From positions 71,414-135,413 of IMG/VR virus record IMGVR_UViG_3300029305_003246: a DNA stretch of 64,000 bases; one strand, 5' to 3'. The DNA comes from a virus (lineage: Duplodnaviria > Caudoviricetes). Shown piece after piece: positions 4,904 through 31,019 of the stretch. The translations under genes and the position numbers were made by a program. Within the stretch, counting starts at the first letter, position 1; the number at the start of each line of letters is the position of its first letter. The notes under the pieces were generated by a model. It had not been told where the DNA came from and made no database searches. It worked only from the letters and a program-made list of their open reading frames with translations.

Positions 4904-4915
4904 GAGGTGATATTT

Positions 4916-10900: not shown

Positions 10901-11725
10901 TTAAATGTGAACGAGTGGAAAGTCAATAATGTTAAAGAATTACATTATACATTCGCAGGTTGTTCTGCATTAACTACTTTAGATTTAAATAATTGGAATA
11001 TTGAAAATGTTGAAAGTATAAACTACACATTCTATGATTGCAAATCTTTATTAAGTTTAAATATAGCATCTTGGAATACAAGCAAAGTTACTACTCTACA
11101 AGGAGCATTCTATAACTGTATTAATCTAATCGACTTAGATGTTTCCGAATGGGATACTCGACAAGTTATAAGTCTATATTATACATTTGCAGGTTGTTCT
11201 GCATTGACAAGTATTGACTTAAGAAAATGGGATATAGGAAATGTTAATACATTATACTATACATTCTCTAGTTGTTCATCTTTAGTAAATCTTGATTTAT
11301 CAACTTGGGACGTGACTAATGTTGAAACTATAGCATATACATTCTATGCATGTACAAACTTAACTAATCTTAATATTTATAATTGGAATATAAATAGAGT
11401 AGCATCTACAGCATATTGTTTCTATAATTGCAAGAAATTAGAGTCTTTAGATTTATCAACTTGGGATTTAGACGATACTGAACTTGCTCAAGATATGCTT
11501 TATGGATGCGAAAGTCTTACAAATATTGAGCCACCATCTAACTTAATGGTATCTCATGGATTATCTACTTCAATTTTATTATCTAAAGAAAACATACTTC
11601 GTTGGATTAACAAGTTACCTTCAGTGAATACTGAAGTAATATTAACTTTAGGTCAAACATTACGAAATAAACTTACTGATGAAGAGTTATTAGTTGCTAT
11701 TAATAAAGGATGGTCGATAATATGA
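4916..11725 (+). CDS. giant multidomain adhesin/RBP: Ig-like + LamG + CotH-kinase-like + LRR + PKD + BspA/DUF285 repeats
   Basis: IKDVRVYNRVLS (LamG); QGTSS…KNF, NGFPC, DSLGKNM…YDADTSIG (CotH-like); ISWGDG (PKD); about 19 26-aa xxTFxxCxxLxxLDLSxWxxxNV repeats; start GTG 4916 after TAGGAGG. Confidence 0.75.
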   Translation: MGVIRKRNPETGEWEVYGSSDAKDINLVDVGDNFKTKNVEGALREISTQISEAKASLEAYNNILTEHSTDIQWLKLYGGSGGGSSPTITSTFKDCIVSREEDVKIPIFFSSPNLGEGTAYVLIDNVEVMSVTGIKQGNNTINIGKLTNLNNEISIYVKDRTNALSNQLTWNVIAGGIDLEVTFDDTSDYFITDIIAMQFNISSASDEPILMHLTVDYDTYEVVCNQGFNEYIFENLGVGIHKISFYFTSGPYSTSVTNYNIIVVSSNSLYISSTFINGTAFKYGIPVPVQYRISKNSSEVFTVNMFIDGTLSKTVECTPGTYYWTINNLEVGTHDLTIEVSGANDETQVLDFSVVIEVSDYIPLKVETGGLLYRLSAKGRTNQDSDRELPIDNSGNNVITTLHNFNFYTNGWIDDELVCDGNAYVEIDLKPWENNALYGSTIEVQFTGLDIGLSDARIFDYTDVDDPYKGIFIDLENSKMKSLANTGEITLDKDEETTLTFVIDRANKFGKIYIDGICSRAFSLSDTGSGTNAVREDFTHSQKIYLNSKKGLSNFGACKIKDVRVYNRVLSDDEIVKNYISQVSDLAKQEELYNFNFHNTSLPTIRMYGDMTNMTLETPVSMRIKYTSPNEDKYGMSFDLPFCQVNWQGTSSLQYVLKNFTARLKDESLNTFEYTPYPNGILEDVYCFKCDYMESTHSRNVGIAKFVNDCVYDTKNPMQVKDPNIRNAVNGFPCILYINDELQGIYNFNLDRYSTKSFGYVDENSTLVYEVSANSDTTAGAFFSWSEGSGKTELDYYKSDFECLYPPTRAAGNDNMSELIRLIQWVDNSSDEDFKDNFGNYFNLEYVLRYYLTVLVFGLVDSLGKNMKLTSFDRGLTWMPQVYDADTSIGLDNTGFLKFDADIEMGDQNVFNTTGSRLWQRVVFLFQAELQEQYALMRQDRFTVDNIMKYLYGEQISQIPATYYNKDMQSKYLNFGSSYLYALHGSGEKHIRKWIRERIMYCDTLLKYQVSSSDYITLRSSKLGYVYLDIQTYIPMYVSVKWRDEVNNTGLQTKRVGRGETVRFEYNMPTATDQEIIVYAGYYLKSLGDVSNLQPTSMLIANASRLTEIECHSPNLINTDLSECTKLQSIDLSDCTALGTGIGAQPILNIQNCKYLRKCDCRNTQLTAIYTMQAGGNLEEIYYPSTIQVIQLTNQKHLRIAGVPRDAHAPKALAQVEITNCNNIEYLQYPYTEGEEIVFESFKYLQTLLIENSLDKLKTMSFKGFSKLKSVELSSLLSLEELDFEDMLPSTDEPTLQNILISNCPRVKDLSFKVSSDDYKIAFLPNGRVDIGGMYSLEKIECNTDIIGLDTLIIPTSLKELRFTDKFGTGKNDIKSIWSSSANHTSDGFVGMDLLDINLTYLDMSNSTIERGINFHISPIDQHPNLNTNRDGIKVPYFIPEGSMDLTNYEGDVEYLYKGLDFSKLKITTPPNVNTFIHSITGLFEGAKFSKSIIDVNKELAKYPNVSNWSNLFKNSVSDLEPSDVNIPIDRPMVLTSMFENTSVTQDIEIPSNVINVDSMFKNCKSMKKYKDNWDKTFDSKISHIDTYKDTGNDKIVPLSWGGQGYVTKYISEIAIEIPYNNYEFTLTDYPEFHIVGDRIISWGDGTEEILTDSYTHTYSKRGKYIISGNFLLGNNYEPSASMKECLTEVRSLAKVNPNLSYAFMGCSALKYLDCDTSHVTSLAYAFYQCSTLTELDLSMWKVDNVTSLYYTFHSCSALEKLDLTGWNIKNVNTMRNTFYGCVSLTSLDIGHWDVSKVKSMYYTFYNCKSLKRLDLSKWDTRLVEDIRACFQNCESLVELNVSDWKLDNITSLFYTFAGCSSLTSLDLSTWDITNVETLQGLFYNCISLRNIPIEDWNLVNVKSLYYTFYRCLGLTELDLSRWVVDNVNSLRSTFYGCSNLVTLNIGNWNTGNVTTLRSTFQNCNALENLDVSEWNVSQVEDLLYTFYNCESLTELNVNEWKVNNVKELHYTFAGCSALTTLDLNNWNIENVESINYTFYDCKSLLSLNIASWNTSKVTTLQGAFYNCINLIDLDVSEWDTRQVISLYYTFAGCSALTSIDLRKWDIGNVNTLYYTFSSCSSLVNLDLSTWDVTNVETIAYTFYACTNLTNLNIYNWNINRVASTAYCFYNCKKLESLDLSTWDLDDTELAQDMLYGCESLTNIEPPSNLMVSHGLSTSILLSKENILRWINKLPSVNTEVILTLGQTLRNKLTDEELLVAINKGWSII
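10010..11530 (+). repeat. about 19 tandem 26-aa (78-nt) BspA/DUF285-type leucine-rich repeats
   Basis: Periodic LYYTFxxCxxLxxLDLSxW units in the translation. Confidence 0.85.
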
Positions 11726-18970: not shown

Positions 18971-20452
18971 ATGGCAAATATACAATACATTGATGCAGCA
19001 GCATTAAAACGTGCATTGGTTAAATTCTTAGAGGGAGCTGATGCTAGATTCTTAGGAATAGACGCTAATGCAGTATCAGCTAGTAAATTACAAGTAGCAG
19101 TTAAAATCAACGGTATAGACTTTGATGGTACTCAAAACGTTGATATCAAAGCAGATAATATCGAAGATTTCGAAGCAAAAGTTGCAGAAATATTAGGAGA
19201 TGCAGAAACTACTCACGTACATGATAACAAAGGTGTACTTGATGGTATAACTCAAGAAATGCTTGACGAGTTTGCAGCAAAAATAGGTGTTGAAGACGTT
19301 GAATTATTACTTTACACTAATGCTAACATGTCTGAAGTTAAAGACGTTAAAGGTGCATTAGATACTATAGTATTAAATGTTGTTGCATTAACTAATAGAG
19401 TTAAAGCATTAGAAGATAAAGACGTTGAAATAGCAGGACAAATAGAAGCTATAGAAGGCGAAATAGACGGTATAGATGAAGCTATAGTACAAATAAATGC
19501 TAAAGATGGAGAACAAGATGGCAAAATACAAGCTTTAGAAGGTAAAGTTGGAGAAGATGGCGAAAATGCTAGTGGATTATTCGCTAAAATAAATGCAGTT
19601 GAAGCTAAAGCAGACCAAGCTCAACAAGAAGTTGACGCAGTTGAAGGTAGAGTTGGAGCTTTAGAAGCTAAAGACGAAGAAGTTGCAGGAGAATTAGAAA
19701 GAATAGAAGGAAAAGTTGACGTTGCTCAAGGCGAAATAGATGCTTTAGAAGGTGTAGTAGAACAAGTTAAAAAAGATTTCGCAGCAGGTGACGCTCAAGC
19801 TTTAGCAGATGCTAAAAAATATGCAGATGAAGAAATAGCTAAATTAGTTGATTCAGCTCCAGATGCTATGAATACATTAAATGAATTAGCTAAAGCAATA
19901 GGTGACCATCAAGATGTTTATGATGCATATGTTGCAGAAGTTTCAGGAGAATTAGCTAAAAAAGTTGATAAAGTTGAAGGAAAATCTTTAATAGATGACA
20001 CAGAAATAGCTAGATTAAAAAATGTTGATAACTACAATGATACTGAAGTTAGAGGTTTAATAAGTGGTCTAGAAGGAAAACATGACCAACATGTTCAAGA
20101 TATAAATGCTAATTTAGATAAAAAAGTAGATAAAGTTGAAGGAAAATCTTTAATACTAGATACTGAAATAACTAGATTAGCTACTCTTCATAACTACGAT
20201 GATGCAGAAGTTAGAGGATTAATAGATGCTTGTGAAGCTAAAGATGTTGAGCAAGATGGAAGATTAGATGCAATAGAAGCTAAAGACGTTGCTCAAGATG
20301 GTAGATTAGATGTTATAGAAGCAGCATTACCATTAAAAGCAGTTAAAACTGAAGTTGAAGCAGCATTAGCATTAAAAGCAAATGTAGCAGACATAGTAGC
20401 AATAACTGAAGCAGAAGTTGACTCTATAGTTGGAGAAGTATTCGGAGAATAG
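18971..20452 (+). CDS. coiled-coil fibre shaft protein
   Basis: SASKLQVAVKINGIDFDG, LVDSAPDAMNTLNELAKAI, KKVDKVEGKSL repeats; highly expressed codon style. Confidence 0.75.
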   Translation: MANIQYIDAAALKRALVKFLEGADARFLGIDANAVSASKLQVAVKINGIDFDGTQNVDIKADNIEDFEAKVAEILGDAETTHVHDNKGVLDGITQEMLDEFAAKIGVEDVELLLYTNANMSEVKDVKGALDTIVLNVVALTNRVKALEDKDVEIAGQIEAIEGEIDGIDEAIVQINAKDGEQDGKIQALEGKVGEDGENASGLFAKINAVEAKADQAQQEVDAVEGRVGALEAKDEEVAGELERIEGKVDVAQGEIDALEGVVEQVKKDFAAGDAQALADAKKYADEEIAKLVDSAPDAMNTLNELAKAIGDHQDVYDAYVAEVSGELAKKVDKVEGKSLIDDTEIARLKNVDNYNDTEVRGLISGLEGKHDQHVQDINANLDKKVDKVEGKSLILDTEITRLATLHNYDDAEVRGLIDACEAKDVEQDGRLDAIEAKDVAQDGRLDVIEAALPLKAVKTEVEAALALKANVADIVAITEAEVDSIVGEVFGE

Positions 20453-20462
20453 TATAATTTAG

Positions 20463-20494
20463 GGAGGTGGGAGTTGTTCTCCCACCTCTTTTTT
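20463..20494 (+). terminator. intrinsic terminator
   Basis: GGAGGTGGGAG-ttgtt-CTCCCACCTCT followed by T-run. Confidence 0.8.
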
Positions 20495-20522
20495 ATATAA
20501 ATCAGTTAAGAGGGGTGATATA

Positions 20523-20774
20523 GTGGTTGGATTTGAAAATCTAAATACATTCAAACATTTTGTTGAAAAGTTGAAAGATATTTTAGCGACTATCTCTTAT
20601 GTTAACGAGTTAGATGCTAAAAATCTAAAAACAGGAAATTATAATTCTCTAAACACTTCTAATAAAACAGTTATTGGTTCAATAAATGAAGTAAATTCGT
20701 TTTTACAAGTAGACTACAATGATTTAATGCAAGATATTAATGAAATTGGAGCATCATTGCCAGATAATAGTTAG
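20523..20774 (+). CDS. short fibre connector protein
   Basis: LNTSNKTVIGSINE motif; C-terminal VDYxxL..DIN motif shared with ORF 56371. Confidence 0.6.
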   Translation: MVGFENLNTFKHFVEKLKDILATISYVNELDAKNLKTGNYNSLNTSNKTVIGSINEVNSFLQVDYNDLMQDINEIGASLPDNS

Positions 20775-20816
20775 TATATATTAAGTAAGTAAATAAAATT
20801 GAAAGGAGTCGATTAA

Positions 20817-22319
20817 ATGGCAAACTTAAATGATGTATTACAAGGTCTAGTCAACTTGAACTCCAAGATGGCAAATAATATAAATAGCATGTTAGATAGT
20901 ATTGGTGAAGGTTTCCTTGATGTTGGGGAAATATCTTTTAATGGCAATACTGTAACATTGTCAAATGCAGTAGTTCTTGTAAATGGTTCAAATAAACAAG
21001 TTCCAAATCTATCTGCAACATTTACGGGCAATCAAATATGCTTTTTAGAGTTTAAAGCCAATAAGAGTTTCGCTTTAAAATTAGTAAATGTTACTGATGC
21101 GAATTTCAATTATAATTCTTCATCATTAACATCTACATCCAAACATTTCGCAGTAGCACGCCGTTATGGTAGTGTTATTGAAGATGTTAGAGTTATTGGA
21201 ATGGTGTCTGATGATAAGACTATAGTAGGAGCTTTAAATGGAGCATTAAAAGCTATCGATTTAGATAATAGTGCAGATTTAGAGCTTAACTTAGATGCAT
21301 TATCTAGAATATCTGCATTAGAAACTAACAAAGTCGATAGAACTTATGTAACTAACTATGTTAGTACAGCAATAAAAGATAAAATAGAAAAGTCTTATGT
21401 TGATGATAATTTTGTATCTAAAACTGATAATAATTTCGTATCTAAAACTGATAATAATTTAGCAACTACTGATAAGACTATAGTAGGTGCGATTAATGAG
21501 GTTTTTCAACGTGGCAATAATGTGAAACAATTGTTAGTAGACGCATTAATTGCCAAAGATGTTACAGCATCTACTGACGAAAGTTTCGAAAGTTTAATAG
21601 GTAAAATTAGTGAAATCCAAGGTGGTTCAGGAGGTACTCCTATAACAAGTTATGCGACGATAACCGTAAATTCATCTGATTTAGTTCTAAATGGTGATTA
21701 CTATTACTACTCAATAGAATCTTTTGATTGGGATAATATAACTCTTATTTTAGCCGATGTTAAAGCAATTGATGACGATATAGGATTTACTCAATATTAT
21801 ACCAATATATTATATCCACCAGAAAGATTTGCAGGGAAATATACATTCTTTGTAGGAAATTTTAATGGTAATGGAGGAACAAGTGTTTATGAGGGTTCAA
21901 GTTGGGATTCAATACCAATAATGAAATCAACAGATAACTTTAGTAATGGGACTCTAACTATTTTTTACAAAGCAGGAACAGTTTCAAATTCTCGTGGTCT
22001 AACTTCACTTAGTCAAGAAACCACTCAATATCGTTCTGTTGATTACAATACTATTGATTTAAATTCTATACCAGGTAAATTTGATTATATTATATTTGAT
22101 TTTTATGCTCATACAGTCGATGCCGACGGATGTAATATGACTGTAATATATGATTGTAACTCCAAGAAATGTTGTTACATGATTCGAGGGTATTATAAGT
22201 ATTGCTATCAATTTGATAATGTACCTTCCAATTTAATTCCTATATTACGTTCAGATTTATCTTCAATAGAGCAGGTTTATTATACAGGTTTCATTGCAAA
22301 TAATGGTACGATTGGATAG
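20817..22319 (+). CDS. tail fibre/RBP 1 (stalk + unknown C-terminal head); contains -1 frameshift cassette
   Basis: KTIVGA(L/I)N repeats; NEVFQRGNNVKQLLVDALIAK motif; aromatic-rich C-terminal domains. Confidence 0.7.
   Translation: MANLNDVLQGLVNLNSKMANNINSMLDSIGEGFLDVGEISFNGNTVTLSNAVVLVNGSNKQVPNLSATFTGNQICFLEFKANKSFALKLVNVTDANFNYNSSSLTSTSKHFAVARRYGSVIEDVRVIGMVSDDKTIVGALNGALKAIDLDNSADLELNLDALSRISALETNKVDRTYVTNYVSTAIKDKIEKSYVDDNFVSKTDNNFVSKTDNNLATTDKTIVGAINEVFQRGNNVKQLLVDALIAKDVTASTDESFESLIGKISEIQGGSGGTPITSYATITVNSSDLVLNGDYYYYSIESFDWDNITLILADVKAIDDDIGFTQYYTNILYPPERFAGKYTFFVGNFNGNGGTSVYEGSSWDSIPIMKSTDNFSNGTLTIFYKAGTVSNSRGLTSLSQETTQYRSVDYNTIDLNSIPGKFDYIIFDFYAHTVDADGCNMTVIYDCNSKKCCYMIRGYYKYCYQFDNVPSNLIPILRSDLSSIEQVYYTGFIANNGTIG
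21500..21578 (+). other. candidate -1 ribosomal frameshift signal, type A pseudoknot
   Basis: G_GTT_TTT 21500-06; spacer CAACGT; S1 GGCAATAATGTG(21513-24)/CGCATT-A-ATTGCC(21542-54); S2 GTTAGTAGA(21533-41)/TCTACTGAC(21570-78); -1 stop TAA 21518-20. Confidence 0.75.
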
Positions 22320-22337
22320 TATTAAATAATATATCAA

Positions 22338-22364
22338 AAGGGAGGAGAAATTTCTCCCTTTATT
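22338..22364 (+). terminator. intrinsic terminator
   Basis: AAGGGAG…CTCCCTT then TATT. Confidence 0.55.
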
Positions 22365-22386
22365 CTTAAAAAGAGGTGATAATTAA

Positions 22387-25300
22387 ATGGCAAAGCCAAA
22401 GTTTATACAAGAAAATGGTGAAACTATTATACCAATTACGCATGAAGATGCCGTACTTGATAATAATGGTCAAAGTATCTCATCTAAATATGTACAAAGA
22501 GAAGATTCATCTTTAATGACTACATCTAAAAATGTAGTTGATGCTATAAATGAATTATCTATGGAATCTGTCACTACTGAGTCTTATACTAACGGTGATG
22601 ATATCCAAATAGAACAAATAGATTATTCTGATGTTATAGATGATGTAACTTCTTTACAAACTGATGTAGGTGATTTAAGTTCTTTACAAACTAAAGATAA
22701 ATCGAATTTAGTCGGTGCATTAAACGAGCTTTTTCAAGATGTCGATAGTGGAAAACAACTCATAGCCGACGCTATCGACGATGAGAATATTACTAAAAAT
22801 TCTACATTTAGTGCTATGAGTGAGGCAATAACAAATATAAAACAGTCAGCAGGCTCAGGTTCCCCTACTGATGGAAGATTGGCTCTTTATTATGAGATGA
22901 TAGATAAGGGATACGTTGAAGCTAATGAAACTATGTCTATTAATGAGTTAGTTAATTTACTTGAAGAATGTGACTTTGACCCTAATGAAGTTAAACAAAT
23001 TTTTAGTGGTGACCAACATACATTCCTTATAAAAAATGACGGAAGTTTATGGGCATGTGGATATAACAGTTATGGTCAGTTAGGGCTAGGTACTACTTCT
23101 ACTAAATACACATTTACTCAAGTTACTGAAAACATAAACAACGATGTTGAACGAGTATTTTGTTTTTCCAGTCATACATTCATTTTAAAAACTGATGGTA
23201 CATTATGGGCTAGTGGTTGGAATTCACATGGTCAATTAGGATTAGGTGATAATACAAATAGGAATACTTTCACTAAAGTTGAAGGTATGGACTCTAATGT
23301 TAAGGAAGTTGTTTGTGGGTCAACTTATACATTCCTTATAAAAAATGACGGAAGTTTATGGGCAACTGGGGGTAACAGTTATGGATATTTAGGATTAGGG
23401 GATACTACTAATAGAAATACATTCACTAAAGTAACTACTAATATAAATAACGACGTGAAACAAGCAACTTTTGGGGGTGGTCATGCATTTATAGTGAAGA
23501 CTGATGGAAGTTTATGGGGTTGTGGTCTTAATAATGTTGGACAATTAGGGTTAAATGATGCTACTAATAGAACTACATTCACTAAAGTAACTACTAATAT
23601 AAATAACGACGTGAAACAAGTAGTTTGTGGAGATAGACATACTGTTATATTAAAAAATGATGGCAGTGTATGGAGTAGTGGTAGAAATGCATATGGAAGT
23701 TTAGGGCTAGGTGATACTTCTAATAGAACTACATTCACTCAAGCAGTAAATAATGTTAAACAAATATCTTGTCATTGTTATACGACAGTAATACAAAGAA
23801 ATGACGGAACTTTATGGGCTTGTGGTTATAATGATTATGGGCAATTTGGTATAAGCGATACTGATTATAAGACTACTTTCATTCAAATTGCTCAGGATAT
23901 AGGTACTAATATTAGAGAGGTAATAGTAGGTTATCGTACCACTTTTATTATTATGAACGATGGTACGATATATGCAGCAGGTTATAATTATTATGGACAA
24001 CTAGGGTTAGATCCAAACACTGAACGATATAAGACATTCACCATTACATTACCACTTGATACTTCTCCAGAGTATCAAGATAAATTAAAGGTATATCAAT
24101 TCTTAAAAAGTGCTATAGGTTTACCAGTTAGAGGTTCAATGTCTATTGAAGAACTGTTGGAAATTCTAATAGATAAAGGAGACCAGCTTGAAGATGTTTT
24201 AGTTGATGTTAAAGATACTTTAATTAATCTAATGCAAGATAATAACCATATTATTACTGATGAAAGTCTTGATAGTCTATTAGATTTATTGAAAAAAAGT
24301 AATATTGATATTGGTGGTATTAAACAAATAGCTTGTGGTAGTTATCATGCAGTTGTATTAAAAAATGACGGAAGTGTATGGACTACAGGTTATAATAATA
24401 GGGGTCAATTAGGAGTAGGTGATACTAGTAATAGGACTACATTCACCAAAGTAACAACTAATATAAACAATGACGTAAAACAAATAGCTTGTGGTAATCA
24501 ACATACATTCATCCTAAAGAATGATGATAGTGTATGGTCTTGTGGTTATAATGTTAGTGGACAATTAGGATTAGGTAATATTCCTAATCAAACTACATTT
24601 GCTCAAGTAACTACAAATATAAATAATGATGTTAAACAAATAGCTTGTGGTAATAATTCTGCAATTATATTAAAAAAGGACGGAAGTATATGGTCTTGTG
24701 GTTATAACAGTTATGGGCAGTTAGGACTAAATGATACTTCTAATAGAGCCTCATTTACCCAAGTAACTACAAACATAAATAATGACGTTAAACAAGTATT
24801 TTGTGGTTATAATCATACATTTATTCTAAAGAATGACGGAAGTTTATGGGCTAGTGGTTATAATAATTATGGTCAACTAGGATTAGGCGATACTACTAAT
24901 AGAACTACATTCACTCAAGTAACTACTAATATAAATAACGATGTTAAACAAGTAGCTAATGGTCAGTTTCATACATTAATATTAAAGAACGATGGTAGTT
25001 TATGGAGTTGTGGTCAAAATGATTATGGACAATTAGGATTAAATGATACTACTACTAATAGAACTACATTTACTCAAGTTATAAATAATGCTAAACAAAT
25101 CGCTTGTGGTGAATATTATACAATTATATTAAAGAATGATGATAGTGTATGGTCTTGTGGTGTGAATGATTATGGTCAATTAGGACTAGGCGATACTACT
25201 CAAAGAACTTCATTCACCAAAGTAACTACAAATATAAGCAATATAAAACAAATAGCTTGTGGTTATTATCATGTATTTATAATAAAGAATGATGGTAGTA

Positions 25301-25392
25301 TATGGGGTTGTGGTTTAAATGACGAAGGTCAATCAGGATTTGGTGATTATAGTAATAGAAAAACATTTACCCAAGTACCAAGGGGATTCTAA
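22387..25392 (+). CDS. RBP 2: stalk + two RCC1/BLIP-II beta-propeller regions; contains -1 frameshift cassette
   Basis: About 14 repeats of KQIACG..HT.ILKNDGSLW.CG.N.YGQLGLGD. Confidence 0.85.
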   Translation: MAKPKFIQENGETIIPITHEDAVLDNNGQSISSKYVQREDSSLMTTSKNVVDAINELSMESVTTESYTNGDDIQIEQIDYSDVIDDVTSLQTDVGDLSSLQTKDKSNLVGALNELFQDVDSGKQLIADAIDDENITKNSTFSAMSEAITNIKQSAGSGSPTDGRLALYYEMIDKGYVEANETMSINELVNLLEECDFDPNEVKQIFSGDQHTFLIKNDGSLWACGYNSYGQLGLGTTSTKYTFTQVTENINNDVERVFCFSSHTFILKTDGTLWASGWNSHGQLGLGDNTNRNTFTKVEGMDSNVKEVVCGSTYTFLIKNDGSLWATGGNSYGYLGLGDTTNRNTFTKVTTNINNDVKQATFGGGHAFIVKTDGSLWGCGLNNVGQLGLNDATNRTTFTKVTTNINNDVKQVVCGDRHTVILKNDGSVWSSGRNAYGSLGLGDTSNRTTFTQAVNNVKQISCHCYTTVIQRNDGTLWACGYNDYGQFGISDTDYKTTFIQIAQDIGTNIREVIVGYRTTFIIMNDGTIYAAGYNYYGQLGLDPNTERYKTFTITLPLDTSPEYQDKLKVYQFLKSAIGLPVRGSMSIEELLEILIDKGDQLEDVLVDVKDTLINLMQDNNHIITDESLDSLLDLLKKSNIDIGGIKQIACGSYHAVVLKNDGSVWTTGYNNRGQLGVGDTSNRTTFTKVTTNINNDVKQIACGNQHTFILKNDDSVWSCGYNVSGQLGLGNIPNQTTFAQVTTNINNDVKQIACGNNSAIILKKDGSIWSCGYNSYGQLGLNDTSNRASFTQVTTNINNDVKQVFCGYNHTFILKNDGSLWASGYNNYGQLGLGDTTNRTTFTQVTTNINNDVKQVANGQFHTLILKNDGSLWSCGQNDYGQLGLNDTTTNRTTFTQVINNAKQIACGEYYTIILKNDDSVWSCGVNDYGQLGLGDTTQRTSFTKVTTNISNIKQIACGYYHVFIIKNDGSIWGCGLNDEGQSGFGDYSNRKTFTQVPRGF
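22728..22821 (+). other. candidate -1 ribosomal frameshift signal, type B pseudoknot
   Basis: G_CTT_TTT 22728-34; spacer CAAGAT; S1 GTCGATAGTG(22741-50)/CGCTATCGAC(22770-79); S2 ACTCATAGC(22758-66)/GCTATGAGT(22813-21); -1 stop TAG 22746-48. Confidence 0.75.
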
Positions 25393-25409
25393 TAAATAAT
25401 CTTATATTC

Positions 25410-25443
25410 AAAGGAGGAGTTCAAAACTTCTCCTTTTAACGTT
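25410..25443 (+). promoter_or_regulatory. terminator hairpin fused with GTTCA-N16-CGTT promoter
   Basis: AAGGAGGAGTT-caa-AACTTCTCCTT+TT; GTTCA 25419-23, CGTT 25440-43. Confidence 0.7.
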
Positions 25444-25473
25444 CTAAATTCTGAAAGGATGTGATTTATTAAT

Positions 25474-27906
25474 ATGGCTAAAATAAAAAAAGTGCAAAAG
25501 AACGGCGAGGATATATATTTAGTTACTCATGAAAATGCAGTACTAGATAGTGATGGAAACACTGTTGGTGAAAAATTATCCGATATATCTAATATAATCG
25601 GTGATACTTCTCAATTACAAACAAATGGAAAATCTATAGTAGAAGCGATGAATGAGGTTTTTCAATGTGGCAATAATGCGAAGAAGGAGTTAGTAGACGC
25701 ATTAGTTGCCAAAGGTGTTTCAGCATCTACTGACAATACTTGGAAAGAGGTTACAAATTCAGTCAAAGATTTACCTTCTAAAATGTTTAGACCTTATGTT
25801 ACAGGTGACCATACTTTGTTCCTTGTTGGTGATGAAGTTTGGTCTTGTGGTGATAACGGTTATGGTCAACTAGGATTAGGGGATACTACTGATAGAACTA
25901 CATTTTGCAAAGTTGATTTTAAAGATGTCTATCAAGTAGCATGTGCATATGCATATAGTGTTATAGTTAGAAAAGATGGTACATTATGGGGATGTGGGCA
26001 TAATACTTATGGCCAGTTAGGTTTACCAAAAGGGTCTGCTAATCCTAATGTATTTACTAGACTTGGAAACATATCTAATATAGATAGAGTTTTTTGTGGA
26101 TATTATCATATGTTTGTTCTTAAAAAAGATAATACTGTATGGGTTACAGGTAGAAATACTGATGGGCAATTAGGTATAGGAACTAAAACTGACCAATTTG
26201 GATTTGTACAAAACACAGATTTAATAGCATCTGATATAAAGAAAATAGAATTCACAGGTTTTGCATCTTTCGTATTAAAAAAAGATGGTACATTATGGGG
26301 ATGTGGTGATAACGCATATTCACTTCTTAATATGCCATCTGATTCGACTCCACATACTACTTTTATTCAAATAGCATCTGATGTTGATGATGTATGGGCA
26401 GGGAGTGACCATTGTTTTCTAAGAAAAACAGATAATACTATATGGAGTTGGGGTAGAAATGATGAAGGACAACTAGGTTTCCCCGAGTATGATACTTCGA
26501 CTTCATCTGCATATACTATGCAGCAACTTCAATCCATTGATTTTTCTAAAATAAAAACTGTATTCCTTTCTAATGATACTTCTTTCCTACTTCAAACTGA
26601 CGGTGTTTTATTAGCTTGTGGTCATAACTATTATGGTAGTTATGGTAGTGGAAACTCTAGTGAAGTTAAAGAATTCACACAAGTTCAATCTGATATTGCA
26701 GAATTATTTGGTGATACATCCTCACAAGGTTTATTTGGATTAAAAACTGATGGAAAATATTATATTTGGGGATATAATGGTTACAGTCAACTTGGAAATG
26801 GGTTAACATCTACTATTTATACACCTGTTGCTCATCCAGATTTATCTTTCGATGCAGGTTATACAGCATTAAAGAATAAATTAAGTATGATGTATGACGT
26901 ATCATCTGCTAGTACTGTAGAGGAACTTTCCGAGTTAATACAAATAGCACCTCCTTTAACTGACCTTTTCGGCAACACTTGTTTTACTAAATATATGCCA
27001 GTTCATGGTGCATCTTATGGCTTTACATTAGGTTCTGATGGATATTATTGTAGTACAAATAAAGCTATAAAGAGCTCTTCATCAGTTGGTCAAGTATTTG
27101 TTTACATTCCACCTTATCCACCTAATACATCAAATGTTATCTTATATTCTGTTTATTTAGATTGTATCTCTAATGGTGAGAATAACTACGACTTCGGTTT
27201 AATAGGTAAATTGAATGAAACTCTTACTTTAAACTCTACAGCTGATTCAAATGTCCTTAAATCTTTCAAAGGATTAGCAAGTACAAATGTTCAGTCTGTC
27301 CTTTTAGCAGAGTCAGTAGAGAGTGCAAATTTATCTGATGCTATAGTAGGGTCTTATTATGTTAAGTATAGAAAAGATGGTTCGAGCGATTCAAATGATG
27401 ACCATTTTAAATTCAAAATTAGAATTGTTGAAGGTATAGTTGGTTGTTGTTTCGATGCAGGTTCTCAAATATTATTAGCTAATGGTACTACTAAAAACAT
27501 TGAAGATATTGTCAAAGGTGATATAGTAATGTCTTTAAATGAAGCTACTAAAGAATTTGAGCCTAAGCCAGTTAAATCTTTAATAGTTAAAGAAAATTCT
27601 GATGACTTAGTATTTATACATTTATCTAATGGTACTAAGATAGGAATGAGAGCATATCATCCATTATTAACAGTTGATGGATGGAAATCACTTAGACCAG
27701 ACTTTGATGATGTTATTAAAGAAGTTGGAAATGTTGAGTTACTTAAAATTGGAGATGTTTTAGTAGGTTACGATGAAAACTTAGAGATTATCAATATCGA
27801 GTCTAGACCTTACGTTGAAAATTATACTACTTATAATCTAGACGTTGAAGATAATGATAACTATGTAGTAGAGGGCATTGTTGCACATAATGCAGCATGT
27901 AAATAA
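25474..27906 (+). CDS. RBP 3: stalk + RCC1 propeller + beta-sandwich + C-terminal Hint (intein-like) domain; contains -1 frameshift cassette
   Basis: RCC1 repeats; CFDAGSQILLANG…IEDIVKGDIVMS…YHPLL…TYNLDVEDNDNYVVEGIVAHN. Confidence 0.85.
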   Translation: MAKIKKVQKNGEDIYLVTHENAVLDSDGNTVGEKLSDISNIIGDTSQLQTNGKSIVEAMNEVFQCGNNAKKELVDALVAKGVSASTDNTWKEVTNSVKDLPSKMFRPYVTGDHTLFLVGDEVWSCGDNGYGQLGLGDTTDRTTFCKVDFKDVYQVACAYAYSVIVRKDGTLWGCGHNTYGQLGLPKGSANPNVFTRLGNISNIDRVFCGYYHMFVLKKDNTVWVTGRNTDGQLGIGTKTDQFGFVQNTDLIASDIKKIEFTGFASFVLKKDGTLWGCGDNAYSLLNMPSDSTPHTTFIQIASDVDDVWAGSDHCFLRKTDNTIWSWGRNDEGQLGFPEYDTSTSSAYTMQQLQSIDFSKIKTVFLSNDTSFLLQTDGVLLACGHNYYGSYGSGNSSEVKEFTQVQSDIAELFGDTSSQGLFGLKTDGKYYIWGYNGYSQLGNGLTSTIYTPVAHPDLSFDAGYTALKNKLSMMYDVSSASTVEELSELIQIAPPLTDLFGNTCFTKYMPVHGASYGFTLGSDGYYCSTNKAIKSSSSVGQVFVYIPPYPPNTSNVILYSVYLDCISNGENNYDFGLIGKLNETLTLNSTADSNVLKSFKGLASTNVQSVLLAESVESANLSDAIVGSYYVKYRKDGSSDSNDDHFKFKIRIVEGIVGCCFDAGSQILLANGTTKNIEDIVKGDIVMSLNEATKEFEPKPVKSLIVKENSDDLVFIHLSNGTKIGMRAYHPLLTVDGWKSLRPDFDDVIKEVGNVELLKIGDVLVGYDENLEIINIESRPYVENYTTYNLDVEDNDNYVVEGIVAHNAACK
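25656..25734 (+). other. candidate -1 ribosomal frameshift signal, type A pseudoknot
   Basis: G_GTT_TTT 25656-62; spacer CAATGT; S1 GGCAATAATGCG(25669-80)/CGCATT-A-GTTGCC(25698-710); S2 GTTAGTAGA(25689-97)/TCTACTGAC(25726-34); -1 stop TAA 25674-76. Confidence 0.75.
27448..27891 (+). other. Hint (intein-like/BIL) autoprocessing domain, about 148 aa
   Basis: Begins Cys-Phe, block-B His (RAYH), ends His-Asn; +1 residue is Ala; no homing endonuclease. Confidence 0.85.
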
Positions 27907-27916
27907 TATATATTCA

Positions 27917-27949
27917 AAGGAGGAGTTCAAACTTCTCCTTTTAAACGTT
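27917..27949 (+). promoter_or_regulatory. terminator hairpin fused with GTTCA-N16-CGTT promoter
   Basis: Near-identical to the 25410 element; GTTCA 27925-29, CGTT 27946-49. Confidence 0.7.
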
Positions 27950-27980
27950 TTAAAATTATGAAAGGATGTGATTTAACGGT

Positions 27981-30764
27981 ATGGCAGAAATAAAAATTCT
28001 GAAAGAAAATGGTAAGGATATTATACCAGTTACTCATGAAAAAGCAGTAGTTGACGATAATGGGGTTTCCTTAAAAAATAAATTAAAAGCATTAGAGGAT
28101 AATAAACTAGAACTAGTGAACGTTGATGGTACTGTTGATGATGTAAATGTTAAAGGCGAAGATGAGAGAATTGGTGAATTAGAAAATCTTCAAACTGAAA
28201 ATAAAGAATCTATTGTCGGTGCATTAAATGAACTTTTTCAAGATGTCGATAGTGGAAAACAACTCATAGCCGACGCTATCGACGACGAAAGCATTACGAA
28301 AGATTCAACATTTGGTGCTATGAGTGAGGCTATAACAAATATAAATTCTGAGTTATCTACTGTTAATGAAGAGTTATCTACTGTTAATGAAGAATTAACT
28401 TCTATTAATAATGAAATAAATAGTTCTATAAATAACTCACGTCAAGCTTTGACTAACTATGATATCAGCTATGATACAAATTCTTCATTTTCCGATTTAA
28501 ACCAATCTTTAATATTAGCAAATCAGCATGAAAATGGGATAAAAACGATAAAAGGTCACCATACAGCTTTTATGGTGAAAAAAGACGGTACAATTTGGGG
28601 TATGGGTTTTAATCAATCCTATCAGTTAGGTATAGGTAGTAACTACAATGCTATTGAGTGGACTAAATTACCTATTGATAATGTTAAAGATGTATTTTAT
28701 ACACTAGATAATACAATAGTATTAAAAAATGATAATACAATATGGGGTTGTGGAAAAAATCAATATGGTGAACTAGGTTTAGGACATAATAGGTATGTTT
28801 ATACTTTCACCAAGTTATATGATAATGTAGAAACTTTAAGTATGGGAGAAACTCATACTGTAATTAAGACTTTAGCAAATTCACTTTATTCCACTGGTCG
28901 AAATAATTCAGGTCAATTATGTCAAGGTGATACTACTGATAGAAATACTTTCACTCATATATCCACTAATGCATCTTTCACAAAACAAATAGCATGTTCT
29001 TCCTCTAATACTTATATACTGAAAGCAAATGGTGATGTTTATTCTGCAGGTGGTAATGCGTATTACCAATTAGCAACAGGTAGTACAGATACTTCATTAG
29101 TTCAAACTACTTTAACGAAAATCAGTTCTGTATCTAAAATCAGTTATATTGATTGTGGTGATAACCATGTTTGTGCATTAGACCATGTGGGCACTTTATA
29201 TACTGCAGGTGATAATACTTATGGCCAATTAGGTAGAACAGGAAATGCTCATACTTTTACAAGTGCACAAACTAAAATTAAAAAGGTTGTATGTGGAGCG
29301 TATCATACCGTTGCTCTTAATAGTAGCAATATTGTATTAACAGTTGGTGCGAATAGCAATGGTCAATTAGGTAATTCAAATACTACAGGTTCTTCTACAT
29401 TTATTAATACAGGGAAAAAAGCATTTGATATTTATGCATTAAAATATTCAACATTCTATTTAGGTGCTGATTGTAAATTATATGCTTGTGGAAAGAATAA
29501 TTATTATCAATTAGGATTTCTTATTTCAGGAGACCAAACTAGTTTTATAGATACTCAAATGTTACTGGATATAAAACCTTCCAATAATGTCTTAAAATCA
29601 AGTATAATATCAGCTTTAACGACGGCATCAATTCCATTTATGAATACTGAGTCTTTAACTAAGTTAGTTCGAAGAACTAAATCTTTCAAGAAGATTTGTG
29701 CTAAATATAACTCAACTGTTTTATTAGATTCATTTGGTACTCTTTGGGTATGTGGATTTAACCTTTATAATCAGTTAGCACTTGACCCATCTTATAAAGG
29801 CAATGAAGTATTTGGATTCCATCAATCAATCTCAGGTGTTAAAGATTTCTCATTCTCAGGTGATTCATTATATTTCCTTAAATATGATAATTCTCTTTGG
29901 GTATGTGGAAGATCAGTTTATGGTCAGTTAGGATTAGGTGATACAACTACTCAATACAGTCCAGTTCGTGCTAATGTTGGTAATATATCTAATATTAAAG
30001 AGGTAGCATGTGGCAAAGGTCATACTTTTATTATAACTGAAACAGGCAAGCTTTATGCATCAGGTAGTAACAGTAAGGGACAACTAGGATTAGGTGATAC
30101 TACTCAAAGAACTACATTCACTTATGTTTCATCTTATGCAAATTATGTCAGCAAAGTTGCTTGTGGGGACGATTTCTCTTTTATTTTACAAGGTGATGGT
30201 CAATTATATGCTTGTGGTAATAATCAGTATGGTCAATTAGGATTAGGTGATACTAATAATAGAAGTAATTTCACTAAAGTTACAAGTATGGGGTCTGATG
30301 TTCAAGATGTTTGTTGTGGTATGAATTATACTTACGTTAAAAAGAAAGATGGAACAATTTGGTGTTGTGGAAGCAACTCAGGTGGTCAGTTATGTCAAGG
30401 CGATACTACTAATAGAAATGTATTTACTAAGGTCAATGTATCATCTATTGATAGAGTTGTTTGTGGGGGATTATTTGTATTCTTTATAGGTACAGATAAG
30501 ACTCTAAAATGTTGTGGAAGTAACTATTTCGGCCAGTTAGGAGTTGGCTCTAGTGGTTCAAGTGCAACCAAAACATCTATAACATCTGTAACTAGTGTAA
30601 CTAATGTAATAGATGTTACAGCAGGTGATTATCATACTATCGTTTTAACTGATGGTGGAATATGTAAGAAATTATATGCTTGTGGAAATTATCAGTATGG
30701 TCAATTAGGGATATCAACATCTTCTGTTATACCGAATTTAACTGAAGTTAATATAATTTTTTAA
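27981..30764 (+). CDS. RBP 4: stalk + two RCC1 propeller regions; contains -1 frameshift cassette
   Basis: Multiple CG.N.YGQLG repeats; shared ENG..IIPVTHE.AV N-terminus. Confidence 0.85.
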   Translation: MAEIKILKENGKDIIPVTHEKAVVDDNGVSLKNKLKALEDNKLELVNVDGTVDDVNVKGEDERIGELENLQTENKESIVGALNELFQDVDSGKQLIADAIDDESITKDSTFGAMSEAITNINSELSTVNEELSTVNEELTSINNEINSSINNSRQALTNYDISYDTNSSFSDLNQSLILANQHENGIKTIKGHHTAFMVKKDGTIWGMGFNQSYQLGIGSNYNAIEWTKLPIDNVKDVFYTLDNTIVLKNDNTIWGCGKNQYGELGLGHNRYVYTFTKLYDNVETLSMGETHTVIKTLANSLYSTGRNNSGQLCQGDTTDRNTFTHISTNASFTKQIACSSSNTYILKANGDVYSAGGNAYYQLATGSTDTSLVQTTLTKISSVSKISYIDCGDNHVCALDHVGTLYTAGDNTYGQLGRTGNAHTFTSAQTKIKKVVCGAYHTVALNSSNIVLTVGANSNGQLGNSNTTGSSTFINTGKKAFDIYALKYSTFYLGADCKLYACGKNNYYQLGFLISGDQTSFIDTQMLLDIKPSNNVLKSSIISALTTASIPFMNTESLTKLVRRTKSFKKICAKYNSTVLLDSFGTLWVCGFNLYNQLALDPSYKGNEVFGFHQSISGVKDFSFSGDSLYFLKYDNSLWVCGRSVYGQLGLGDTTTQYSPVRANVGNISNIKEVACGKGHTFIITETGKLYASGSNSKGQLGLGDTTQRTTFTYVSSYANYVSKVACGDDFSFILQGDGQLYACGNNQYGQLGLGDTNNRSNFTKVTSMGSDVQDVCCGMNYTYVKKKDGTIWCCGSNSGGQLCQGDTTNRNVFTKVNVSSIDRVVCGGLFVFFIGTDKTLKCCGSNYFGQLGVGSSGSSATKTSITSVTSVTNVIDVTAGDYHTIVLTDGGICKKLYACGNYQYGQLGISTSSVIPNLTEVNIIF
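28232..28325 (+). other. candidate -1 ribosomal frameshift signal, type B pseudoknot
   Basis: A_CTT_TTT 28232-38; spacer CAAGAT; S1 GTCGATAGTG(28245-54)/CGCTATCGAC(28274-83); S2 ACTCATAGC(28262-70)/GCTATGAGT(28317-25); -1 stop TAG 28250-52. Confidence 0.75.
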
Positions 30765-30776
30765 GGAGTTTTAATT

Positions 30777-30953
30777 ATGCCGAAACCTTCATATCGAGAT
30801 GATTCAGGAGCTATTAATTTCCTTCCCACTACTGAAGAAAAAAGTCAATTACAAATAAGACGTGAAATAAAACAATTACAAGAAAGTCTAGATAAAATAA
30901 ATACTGACTTAGATTTAATTAAACAAATGTTATACTTAATATTATCTAAATAA
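30777..30953 (+). CDS. small coiled-coil virion-associated protein (58 aa, not in ORF track)
   Basis: AAGGAG RBS; MPKPSYRDDSGAINF…EIKQLQESLDKINTDLDLIKQML (RD.SGAI + coiled coil). Confidence 0.6.
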   Translation: MPKPSYRDDSGAINFLPTTEEKSQLQIRREIKQLQESLDKINTDLDLIKQMLYLILSK

Positions 30954-30983
30954 AGTGAGTTCAAGTAACTCACTTTATTCGTT
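30952..30983 (+). promoter_or_regulatory. terminator hairpin fused with GTTCA-N16-CGTT promoter
   Basis: AAAGTGAGTT-caagt-AACTCACTTT; GTTCA 30959-63, CGTT 30980-83. Confidence 0.7.
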
Positions 30984-31019
30984 TATATAAGTAATATTGA
31001 TATAATAAGGAGGTAACAT

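Follow-up and report, generated by a model that had tools for sequence, protein, structure and literature searches.

Programmed −1 ribosomal frameshifting in bacteria is typified by Escherichia coli dnaX (tau/gamma), in which the canonical slippery run A_AAA_AAG is followed by a 6-nt spacer and a stable stem-loop and is assisted by an upstream Shine-Dalgarno stimulator; the −1 frame meets a stop almost at once, giving a truncated protein that shares its N-terminus with the full-length one. In tailed phages, the tail assembly chaperone frameshift of the lambda G/GT type lies within the tail morphogenesis module and sets a fixed ratio of two proteins with a common N-terminus, but it uses canonical heptamers and extends the protein. 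The heptamer G_GUU_UUU of cardioviruses and arteriviruses (EMCV/TMEV 2B*, PRRSV nsp2TF) breaks the X_XXY_YYZ rule yet shifts, in eukaryotic RNA viruses whose stimulators are protein-RNA complexes. In the Firmicute (Listeria) phage PSA, pseudoknots are reportedly linked to +1 shifts at the 3′ ends of the capsid and tail genes, giving longer proteins as second isoforms (Zimmer et al. 2003). At the DNA level, conserved motifs in the T-even long tail fiber genes (gp37 "His boxes") sit at module junctions within mosaic genes, act through sequence identity, and mediate adhesin swaps.

Here, we analyzed a 64,000-nt stretch (the window) of an uncultured 135-kb phage, in which receptor-binding protein (RBP) genes carry a U-run followed 6 nt later by an RNA structure, inferred from sequence to be an H-type pseudoknot, inside the coding sequence. 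Like dnaX, the element combines a candidate slippery run (here of U), a 6-nt spacer, a stable downstream structure, and an early −1 stop; however, its site is N_CUU_UUU or G_GUU_UUU, its structure is a pseudoknot, and no Shine-Dalgarno-like constraint is seen. Compared with G/GT, a shift here would truncate rather than extend the protein, and the element lies in the fiber genes themselves, four times in one cluster. RBP1, RBP3, and phiCD27 gp29 carry exactly G_GUU_UUU, although RBP2 and RBP4 have CUU in place of GUU, and bacterial ribosomes and an RNA pseudoknot are involved here. In contrast to the PSA case, which has no U-run and is not in receptor-binding proteins, the element lies within fiber genes with relatives in Clostridioides difficile and Clostridium tetani phages. 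In contrast to the gp37 motifs, what is conserved is base pairing, with compensatory changes and G-U pairs. A covariance-model search of positions 20500-31000 on both strands against Rfam 15 (E ≤ 1) gave 0 matches, and literature searches found no description of such an element.

The cassette in four receptor-binding protein genes

The observation made in the first-pass annotation proved correct, and every sequence statement was found at the stated coordinates. RBP2 and RBP4 are identical over 53 nt (22729-22781 vs 28233-28285), with 0 of 51 differences from the U-run to the end of S1, 8 of 33 in loop 3, and 0 of 9 in the S2 3′ arm. The distal arm GCTATGAGT and its reverse complement ACTCATAGC were found at the S2 3′ and 5′ arm positions of both genes. 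Of the loop 3 substitutions, which the annotation had described as mostly synonymous, 4 of the 8 codons with the same amino acid use different codons, while 3 codons are non-synonymous. S1 is longer than the 8 bp GTCGATAG/CTATCGAC, comprising 10 bp at −14.6 kcal/mol with z of about −3.1 against dinucleotide shuffles; S2 comprises 9 bp. The features of the four copies are summarized in Table 1.

Table 1. Positions of the cassette and its host genes in the window (all on the + strand)
Feature	Gene	Position	Details
Coding sequence	RBP2	22387..25392	1001 aa; tail-fiber-like N-terminus followed by RCC1-like beta-propeller repeats; Pfam RCC1/WD40_RLD, E = 6e-179; PHROG tail-fiber hits on the N-terminal 204 aa
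U-run (candidate slip site)	RBP2	22729..22735	CUUUUUC (codons CUU UUU + C); heptamer G_CUU_UUU at 22728-22734
Spacer	RBP2	22735..22740	CAAGAU, 6 nt
S1 5′ arm	RBP2	22741..22750	GUCGAUAGUG; contains −1-frame stop UAG at 22746-22748
Loop 1	RBP2	22751..22757	GAAAACA
S2 5′ arm	RBP2	22758..22766	ACUCAUAGC; inside the S1 loop; Leu codon CTC; +1-frame stop UAG at 22763-65
Loop 2	RBP2	22767..22769	3 nt
S1 3′ arm	RBP2	22770..22779	CGCUAUCGAC; rare codons ATC and GAC
Loop 3	RBP2	22780..22812	33 nt; drifts between RBP2 and RBP4
S2 3′ arm	RBP2	22813..22821	GCUAUGAGU; codons Ala-Met-Ser; S2 duplex −14.1 kcal/mol against −7.8 for synonymous recodings, p = 0.025
Coding sequence	RBP4	27981..30764	927 aa; same N-terminal module followed by RCC1 repeats
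Cassette	RBP4	28233..28325	second copy; heptamer A_CUU_UUU
U-run	RBP4	28233-39
S1 arms	RBP4	28245-54 / 28274-83	−1 stop UAG at 28250-52
S2 arms	RBP4	28262-70 / 28317-25	−14.3 kcal/mol; p = 0.009
Loop 3	RBP4	28284-28316
Cassette	RBP1	21500..21578	different sequence version (type A); G_GUU_UUU_C at 21500-07
S1	RBP1	21513-21554	GGCAAUAAUGUG/CGCAUUAAUUGCC with a 1-nt bulge
S2	RBP1	21533-41 / 21570-78	GUUAGUAGA / UCUACUGAC; p = 0.003
Cassette	RBP3	25656..25734	type A; G_GUU_UUU_C at 25656-63
S1	RBP3	25669-25710
S2	RBP3	25689-97 / 25726-34	p = 0.049

The reading frame is GAG CUU UUU CAA GAU GUC, with the −1 frame stopping 4 codons on and the +1 frame 10 codons on. The claim that the stems use codons uncommon in this genome also held: window usage is CTC 1%, GTC 7%, ATC 9%, GCC 11%, CTT 16%, and GAC 21%. 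Loops 1, 2 (0–1 nt in most relatives), and 3 have lengths that are sterically reasonable for coexisting and stacked stems, judged by general rules rather than by a pseudoknot-aware energy model or probing. A window-wide hairpin scan, whose duplicate filter skipped the real sites, showed only that isolated hairpins of this size occur by chance, and one such hairpin in 64 kb would not be beyond chance; the significance of the element comes from conservation and covariation across homologs.

Conservation and covariation across homologs

To collect homologs, we performed codon-degenerate pattern searches. Megablast of the RBP cluster against INPHARED and a search of IMG/VR for related loci with the motif peptide found no close relatives, and a strict pattern gave 0 hits in IMG/VR and in GTDB genomes and 2 metagenome contigs. 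Looser patterns gave the usable set, although one of these mostly returned unrelated P-loop and other proteins, which were discarded, and a class-level pattern search of 401 genomes added nothing. The final set comprised 36 unique homologous segments (29 clusters at 85% identity), including RBP1 and RBP3 of the window, the C. difficile phages phiCD27, phiCDHM19, and phiCD505, and C. tetani phiCT9441A; this set is small and the sequences are not phylogenetically independent.

S1 is kept by compensatory changes, with GUC/GAC, GCC/GGC, GGC/GCC, and GGA/UCC codon pairs, the last contributed by phiCD27 gp29. Across 25 aligned homologs, 96.9% of cells in 16 class-I homologs and 84.3% in 9 class-II homologs (the latter including RBP1 and RBP3) were paired, against at most 59% when partners were slid, and 0 of 500 shuffles reached this; each class showed 3 pairs with changes on both sides. 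In class I, pair 17:53 is CG 12 / UA 4, pair 19:51 is GC 12 / AU 4, and pair 23:47 is GC 10 / AU 2; at pair 19:51 an Asp/Asn change (GAU/AAU) is matched without exception by a synonymous AUC/AUU change. In class II, pair 2 is UA 5 / CG 2 / GC 2 and pair 4 is AU 5 / GC 4.

S2 recurs in about ten different sequence versions, rebuilt at different positions, and was stronger than 1000 synonymous recodings in most lineages, with Fisher p = 2.6e-7 over 14 sequence classes. This total includes four classes, mainly one C. difficile prophage lineage, that have S1 only and no S2. Within type B (RBP2 and RBP4), the S2 arms are almost invariant, and covariation therefore comes from relatives: in the 6-sequence KG subgroup, 100% of cells pair and 3 of 8 S2 pairs are compensatory, all at third codon positions.

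Synonymous constraint was local. The Leu codon of the U-run is CTT in 19 of 19 Leu-Phe homologs and the Phe codon is TTT in 27 of 27, against expected same-codon fractions of 0.37 and 0.66, and the first S1 codon is always GNC (27 of 27). Flank and loop codons, including the Gly and Lys codons of loop 1, were at the level expected from codon usage, and the Glu codon before the U-run showed no constraint, so no Shine-Dalgarno-like stimulator is seen. The spacer is 6 nt in all 35 U-run-bearing homologs while its sequence varies, with S1 at −9 to −19 kcal/mol, which fits the 5–9 nt spacing to a stable downstream structure of a −1 frameshift cassette. The −1 stop lies at the same position, 4 codons on, in 36 of 36 segments, using all three stop codons, whereas the +1 stops are scattered. 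The one homolog group without a U-run (L028) has no significant structure (p = 0.68), while two groups without S1 (L027 and L031) pair the same 5′ arm with a site about 75 nt downstream (p = 0.013 and 0.000).

The sense-strand hairpin was more stable than the antisense one in 24 of 33 cases (Wilcoxon p = 0.003), and the sense-strand stems contain 49 G-U pairs, which points to mRNA rather than duplex DNA. A recent gene-conversion tract, the scenario set beforehand as one that would overturn the structural reading, was weakened, because unrelated metagenome contigs differ from RBP2 at only 2 of 51 core positions while their flanks are scrambled.

Possible roles of the element

Taken together, the interpretation in the first-pass annotation is partly supported: selection on an RNA pseudoknot beyond the protein sequence is supported, whereas its role in frameshifting is not established. 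In our preferred reading, the codons for a conserved peptide, NE[LV]FQx[VAG][DN]xGKxxIAxAI..., also spell a recoding-type cassette in which the S2 5′ arm lies in the S1 loop, directly next to the S1 3′ arm. With Leu/Val-Phe in the P and A sites, the base of S1 would sit at the mRNA entry channel and resist unwinding, most likely resulting in a programmed pause. A fraction of ribosomes would then slip −1 on U_UUU, where tRNA-Phe re-pairs perfectly and the P-site tRNA poorly, read 4 codons, and terminate at the UAG/UAA/UGA built into the S1 5′ arm. This would give a head-less, anchor-only N-terminal isoform alongside the full-length fiber, in the way dnaX makes gamma from tau.

We assign this whole statement, including the frameshift, a probability of about 0.45; we are highly confident that the pseudoknot is a selected mRNA structure, whereas −1 frameshifting to a stop as its role is somewhat less likely than not. 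The comparative data show that the structure exists and is under selection at the nucleotide level, that the U-run and its spacing are under synonymous constraint, and that the −1 stop is universal in the homologs collected, while the occurrence of slipping, its efficiency, and the purpose of the short product are inferred. The heptamers of all four window copies fail the X_XXY_YYZ rule, as the annotation had recognized for N_CUU_UUU in leaving single-tRNA slippage or a −2/+1 event open. After a −1 shift at G/A_CUU_UUU, the P-site tRNA-Leu would face GCU with almost no pairing, so only single-tRNA slippage on U_UUU is possible, which in bacteria is usually inefficient. The only predicted product is a truncation, at positions ranging from residue 49 to 432 in different proteins, with no demonstrated benefit, and the −1 stop and the T-ending codons could be by-products of the [DN][NSD] residues plus the S1 pairing. 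The strict synonymous conservation of the U-run, the invariant 6-nt spacer, and the universal −1 stop are circumstantial support.

If the element is only a structure, it is still a clear bacterial-virus example of a pseudoknot maintained inside a coding sequence strongly enough to dictate amino-acid pairs (V..D, A..G, G..A, G..S). If it recodes, it would add receptor-binding proteins to the short list of phage genes controlled by frameshifting, on a non-canonical site, and would suggest a way that phages with several fibers set fiber stoichiometry, with a bearing on host-range biology and on the annotation of fiber genes in C. difficile phages. A broader possibility, which we hold only tentatively, is that many phages of Clostridia, including the model C. 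difficile phages, share an unrecognized recoding cassette that diverts a set fraction of ribosomes into a stop hidden in the stem, so that each fiber gene makes both a full fiber and an anchor-only stub, which could tune how many bulky heads, or which of several competing fibers, occupy the baseplate. The element is present in cultured phages (phiCD27, phiCDHM19, and phiCT9441A), where it is directly testable.

The strongest alternative, although we consider it unlikely, is a selected mRNA structure that acts without recoding, as a programmed pause that, for example, lets the N-terminal anchor or shaft fold or trimerize before the bulky RCC1 head is made, as a determinant of mRNA stability or processing, or as a binding site for a regulator. 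All of the structural evidence fits this reading equally well, the cassette always lies between a variable N-terminal part and the distal part of the fiber, the slip site is non-canonical, and one lineage keeps only the hairpin. However, a pure roadblock does not explain why the codons 6 nt upstream are fixed as CUU UUU, GUU UUU, or GCU UUU, nor why the only homolog without the U-run lacks the structure.

A DNA-level element is much less likely, whether a recombination linker for swapping fiber heads, kept identical by gene conversion between RBP2 and RBP4, or a hairpin or cruciform recognized on DNA. Four direct copies lie in one 10-kb cluster, RBP2 and RBP4 share the perfectly identical block, and the peptide module joins very different N- and C-terminal parts (RCC1, Kelch, none) in 34 metagenome proteins, compared at the protein level; the gp37 motifs offer a precedent. 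However, conservation takes the form of complementarity rather than identity, with compensatory double changes and many G-U pairs that would be A-C mismatches on the other strand. Constraint is confined to the stems and the U-run while loops within the same block drift, S2 is rebuilt with different sequences, and contigs from other samples are nearly as similar to RBP2 in the core as RBP4 is.

A +1 (or −2) shift is similarly improbable. UUU_C would allow perfect re-pairing of tRNA-Phe(GAA) on UUC, CUU_U is the prfB shift codon, at which tRNA-Leu would move from CUU to UUU, and the +1 frame in RBP2 and RBP4 stops after 10 codons. However, the +1 stops lie at variable positions (5 to more than 40 codons) and are absent in some homologs, the base after the U-run is A or U in some lineages, the A-site codon is neither rare nor a stop, and a downstream block 6 nt away fits the −1 geometry. 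Least likely is the absence of any nucleic-acid function, with complementarity as a by-product of a peptide whose codons happen to be reverse complements (V/D, D/I, S/A): although, given the amino-acid sequence alone, 1–5% of random synonymous recodings already reach the full S1 length, so that the peptide predisposes to pairing, third-position choices are consistently the rare pairing ones in about 29 clusters, synonymous AUC/AUU tracks GAU/AAU, the S2 compensatory changes are all at third positions, and the residue pairs follow codon complementarity rather than any physicochemical rule.

Further readings of the locus were considered and dropped. Pairing of the U-run with GGAAAA in loop 1 was rejected because the Gly third base varies freely and this pairing would exclude S1. 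An intrinsic terminator on either strand was rejected because no U-tract follows the hairpin and the antisense strand has an A-tract, and a DGR or invertase site was rejected because the position and geometry are wrong. phiSemix9P1, considered as a gene split at the shift site, simply lacks the motif. Internal initiation at the AUG in the S2 3′ arm was rejected because there is no Shine-Dalgarno sequence and the AUG is absent outside type B.

The tail-fibre cluster and the predicted pseudoknot in RBP2 and RBP4

The window forms the right-hand 64 kb of a 135-kb IMG/VR virus record with direct terminal repeats, has a G+C content of 31%, and carries all of its genes on the + strand. Its tail-fibre cluster holds four large genes, RBP1 to RBP4, of which RBP2 to RBP4 carry RCC1-like beta-propeller repeats as their distal parts, and the N-terminal part of RBP2 hits PHROG tail-fibre families. 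RBP2 has about 13–14 repeats, enough for two propellers, and relatives carry Kelch repeats on the same N-terminal module. No close relative exists in INPHARED or IMG/VR, and the nearest motif-level hits are Clostridioides and Clostridium phages. The positions of the features are summarized in the table.

Genes and structural elements, in window coordinates unless otherwise stated
Feature	Position	Sequence or description
Tail-fibre cluster	18971-30764	Four large genes
RBP1	20817-22319
RBP2	22387-25392	RCC1-like repeats
RBP3	25474-27906	RCC1-like repeats
RBP4	27981-30764	RCC1-like repeats
RBP2 to RBP4 together	22387-30764	RCC1-like beta-propellers as the distal parts
Tract identical between RBP2 and RBP4	22729-22781 (RBP2); 28233-28285 (RBP4)
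S1 5' arm (RBP2)	22741-50	GUCGAUAGUG
S1 3' arm (RBP2)	22770-79	CGCUAUCGAC
S2 5' arm (RBP2)	22758-66	ACUCAUAGC
S2 3' arm (RBP2)	22813-21	GCUAUGAGU
Shared N-terminal segment	22387-22470 (RBP2); 25474-25556 (RBP3); 27981-28063 (RBP4)	First ~28 residues conserved
Hairpin in the RCC1 repeat region of RBP2	23932-23970	UAUCGUACCA/UGGUACGAUA, perfect 10 bp, 19-nt loop
Hint/intein-splicing-like domain of RBP3	Residues about 657-806	PF14890, E = 2.4e-10
2272-aa ORF	4907-11725	phrog_9915, E = 3.5e-156
Stand-alone N-terminal module in phiSemix9P1	19751-19966 of phiSemix9P1	72-aa ORF

The first-pass annotation had described invariant stems around a freely drifting 33-nt loop in RBP2 and RBP4, and everything in this description was found in the sequence, including the two loop strings, the GCTATGAGT arms, and their complements ACTCATAGC. 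After the identical tract, the two genes differ at 8 of 33 positions and are again identical in the 9-nt distal arm. S1 has an energy of -14.6 kcal/mol, with z about -3, and the loops are 7 nt (L1), 3 nt (L2), and 33 nt (L3) long. The reading frame is GAG CUU UUU CAA GAU GUC, so the U-run ends 6 nt before S1. The claim that the stems use uncommon codons also held, as usage in this genome is 1% for CTC, 7% for GTC, 9% for ATC, and 11% for GCC. A further perfect hairpin was seen inside the RCC1 repeat region of RBP2, but hairpins of this size occur by chance in codon-shuffled windows.

Conservation of pairing among homologous segments

To determine whether the element is more than a local duplicate, we first searched for the encoded peptide, NELFQ[DN]VDSGKQLIADAIDD..ITKDSTF.AMSEAI, which recurs in at least 34 metagenome fibre proteins, where it sits at positions from about 50 to about 590 and is joined to RCC1, Kelch, or unannotated heads. 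Public DNA was then searched with codon-degenerate patterns that leave every third position free, and annotated phages were taken from INPHARED. After removal of unrelated matches, the set comprised 36 unique 150-nt segments in 29 clusters at 85% identity, including all four RBPs of the window, C. difficile prophages and phages (phiCD27 gp29, phiCDHM19 gp35, and phiCD505), the tail fibre of C. tetani phage phiCT9441A, phage Makh22, an Anaerococcus MAG, and several IMG/VR contigs. The genome under study itself has exactly four copies and no tRNA genes.

In 33 of the 36 segments, a hairpin corresponding to S1 closes exactly at the codon three positions after Phe, with the sequence changing while the pairing is kept. 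The first and last codons of the stem form the pairs GUC/GAC (Val..Asp), GCC/GGC (Ala..Gly), GGC/GCC (Gly..Ala, in RBP1 and RBP3), and GGA/UCC (Gly..Ser, in phiCD27). GAU pairs with AUC and AAU pairs with AUU without exception; an amino-acid change on one side is thus answered by a synonymous change on the other. On the 16-sequence alignment, 96.9% of cells pair, compared with at most 59% when partners are slid, and 0 of 500 shuffles reach this value, while the 9-sequence alignment gives 84.3%. Given the protein alone, 1–5% of synonymous recodings reach the same stem length, and the peptide therefore predisposes to pairing. Even so, the pairing-competent rare codons are chosen every time: the first S1 codon ends in C in 27 of 27 cases, whereas neighbouring loop and flank codons match codon usage. 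Sense-strand hairpins are more stable than antisense ones in 24 of 33 cases (p = 0.003) and hold 49 G-U pairs, which favours mRNA over duplex DNA.

To evaluate S2, we measured the best duplex between the S1 loop and the next 72 nt and compared it with 1000 synonymous recodings. The duplex is stronger than the recodings in most lineages, and in most of them it starts 0–1 nt before the S1 3' arm. It uses about ten unrelated sequences, with the 3' arm 11 to 37 nt downstream, examples being ACUCAUAGC/GCUAUGAGU, UUAGUAGA/UCUACUGA, GUAGUAAC/GUUACUAC, UUGCUAAG/CUUAGCAA, UAGCCAAA/UUUGGCUR, and AUUGCUAAC/GUUAGCAAU. Taking the median p of each of 14 sequence classes, including four classes with no S2, Fisher's combined p is 2.6e-7. 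In the six-sequence subgroup that can be aligned column by column, all 114 cells pair, and three of the eight S2 pairs change on both sides, all at third codon positions. Within the RBP2/RBP4 type, S2 is nearly invariant, and its support there is synonymous constraint (Leu as CTC, 1% usage) rather than covariation. One C. difficile prophage lineage has S1 only, whereas two lineages lack S1 but pair the same 5' arm with a segment about 75 nt downstream (p = 0.013 and 0.000). The single lineage without a U-run shows no significant structure (p = 0.68).

The U-run, alternative frames, and gene conversion

The Leu codon before Phe is CTT in 19 of 19 cases, compared with 16% usage in this genome, and it is the only Leu codon that extends the run. 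Phe is TTT in 27 of 27 cases, and where the residue before Phe is Val or Ala, the codon is GTT or GCT. The spacer is always 6 nt. In the -1 frame, a stop lies at the same place in all 36 segments, 4 codons on and at positions 6–8 of the S1 5' arm, and is UAG, UAA, or UGA depending on the lineage. This stop cannot be separated from the [DN][NSD] residues and the needs of S1, and is therefore suggestive only. The +1-frame stops are scattered or absent.

Identity explained by a recent gene-conversion tract, with no structure-dependent frameshifting in assays, had been named beforehand as the finding that would count against selection on the structure. Two contigs from another metagenome differ from RBP2 at 2 of 51 core positions, while up to three quarters of same-residue codons are changed in the flanks. 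The identity between RBP2 and RBP4 therefore reflects constraint that is shared across genomes; a recent conversion event on top of that cannot be excluded, but it is not needed.

Proposed mechanism and associated fibre modules

The best-supported reading is an mRNA pseudoknot that would act on the translating ribosome when Leu/Val-Phe occupy the P and A sites. The first-pass interpretation is partly supported, in that its proposal of selection on RNA structure beyond the protein sequence is borne out, whereas frameshifting is not established. The pairing, its maintenance across the homologous segments, and the fixed U-run and spacer were observed directly in the sequences, while any effect on the ribosome, including slippage, is inferred from sequence alone. 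We place the probability that the pseudoknot is a selected mRNA structure at about 0.9, and that it serves -1 frameshifting to a stop at about 0.4. The geometry matches -1 frameshift cassettes, and the proposed outcome, a shift followed by an immediate stop, resembles dnaX. The heptamer fails the X_XXY_YYZ rule in RBP2 and RBP4 (G/A_CUU_UUU), whereas RBP1, RBP3, and phiCD27 carry G_GUU_UUU, which shifts in cardioviruses and arteriviruses.

Among the alternatives, a translational pause or another role without recoding is possible, although somewhat less likely than the frameshift. A DNA-level linker is improbable, and a +1 shift, which the first-pass annotation had left open, is more doubtful still. 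That the pairing is merely a by-product of the protein sequence is the least likely of these readings.

No match was found in Rfam 15, and full-text literature searches found no description of the element. It is best described as a recoding-type cassette of a U-run plus a pseudoknot, and what is new is its location in receptor-binding protein genes, its non-canonical site, and its putative truncating outcome.

One incidental observation fits the idea that such a truncation would leave an anchor-only product. The ~50-aa N-terminal module that precedes the cassette in C. difficile phage proteins exists in phiSemix9P1 as a stand-alone ORF followed by a separate gene, so that part can stand alone. 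In phiCD27 gp29, the module is fused to a 410-aa protein that lies between the tail-fibre and lysis genes and is annotated as hypothetical.

RBP2, RBP3, and RBP4 share their conserved first ~28 residues (MA.[IP]K...NG..I..[IV]THE.AV.D..G) as well as the upstream ribosome-binding region (repeat families D13 and D17 of the window), and this segment is probably a common baseplate-docking peptide. RBP3 ends, after its RCC1 repeats, in the Hint/intein-splicing-like domain, which may be a self-cleaving C-terminal module of a fibre protein. Outside the cluster, the 2272-aa ORF matches only PHROGs of unknown function. Several other contigs (our loci L003, L006, L014, and L036) carry two cassette-bearing fibre genes each, usually of different sequence versions, and arrays of multiple fibres, each with its own cassette, therefore seem common.
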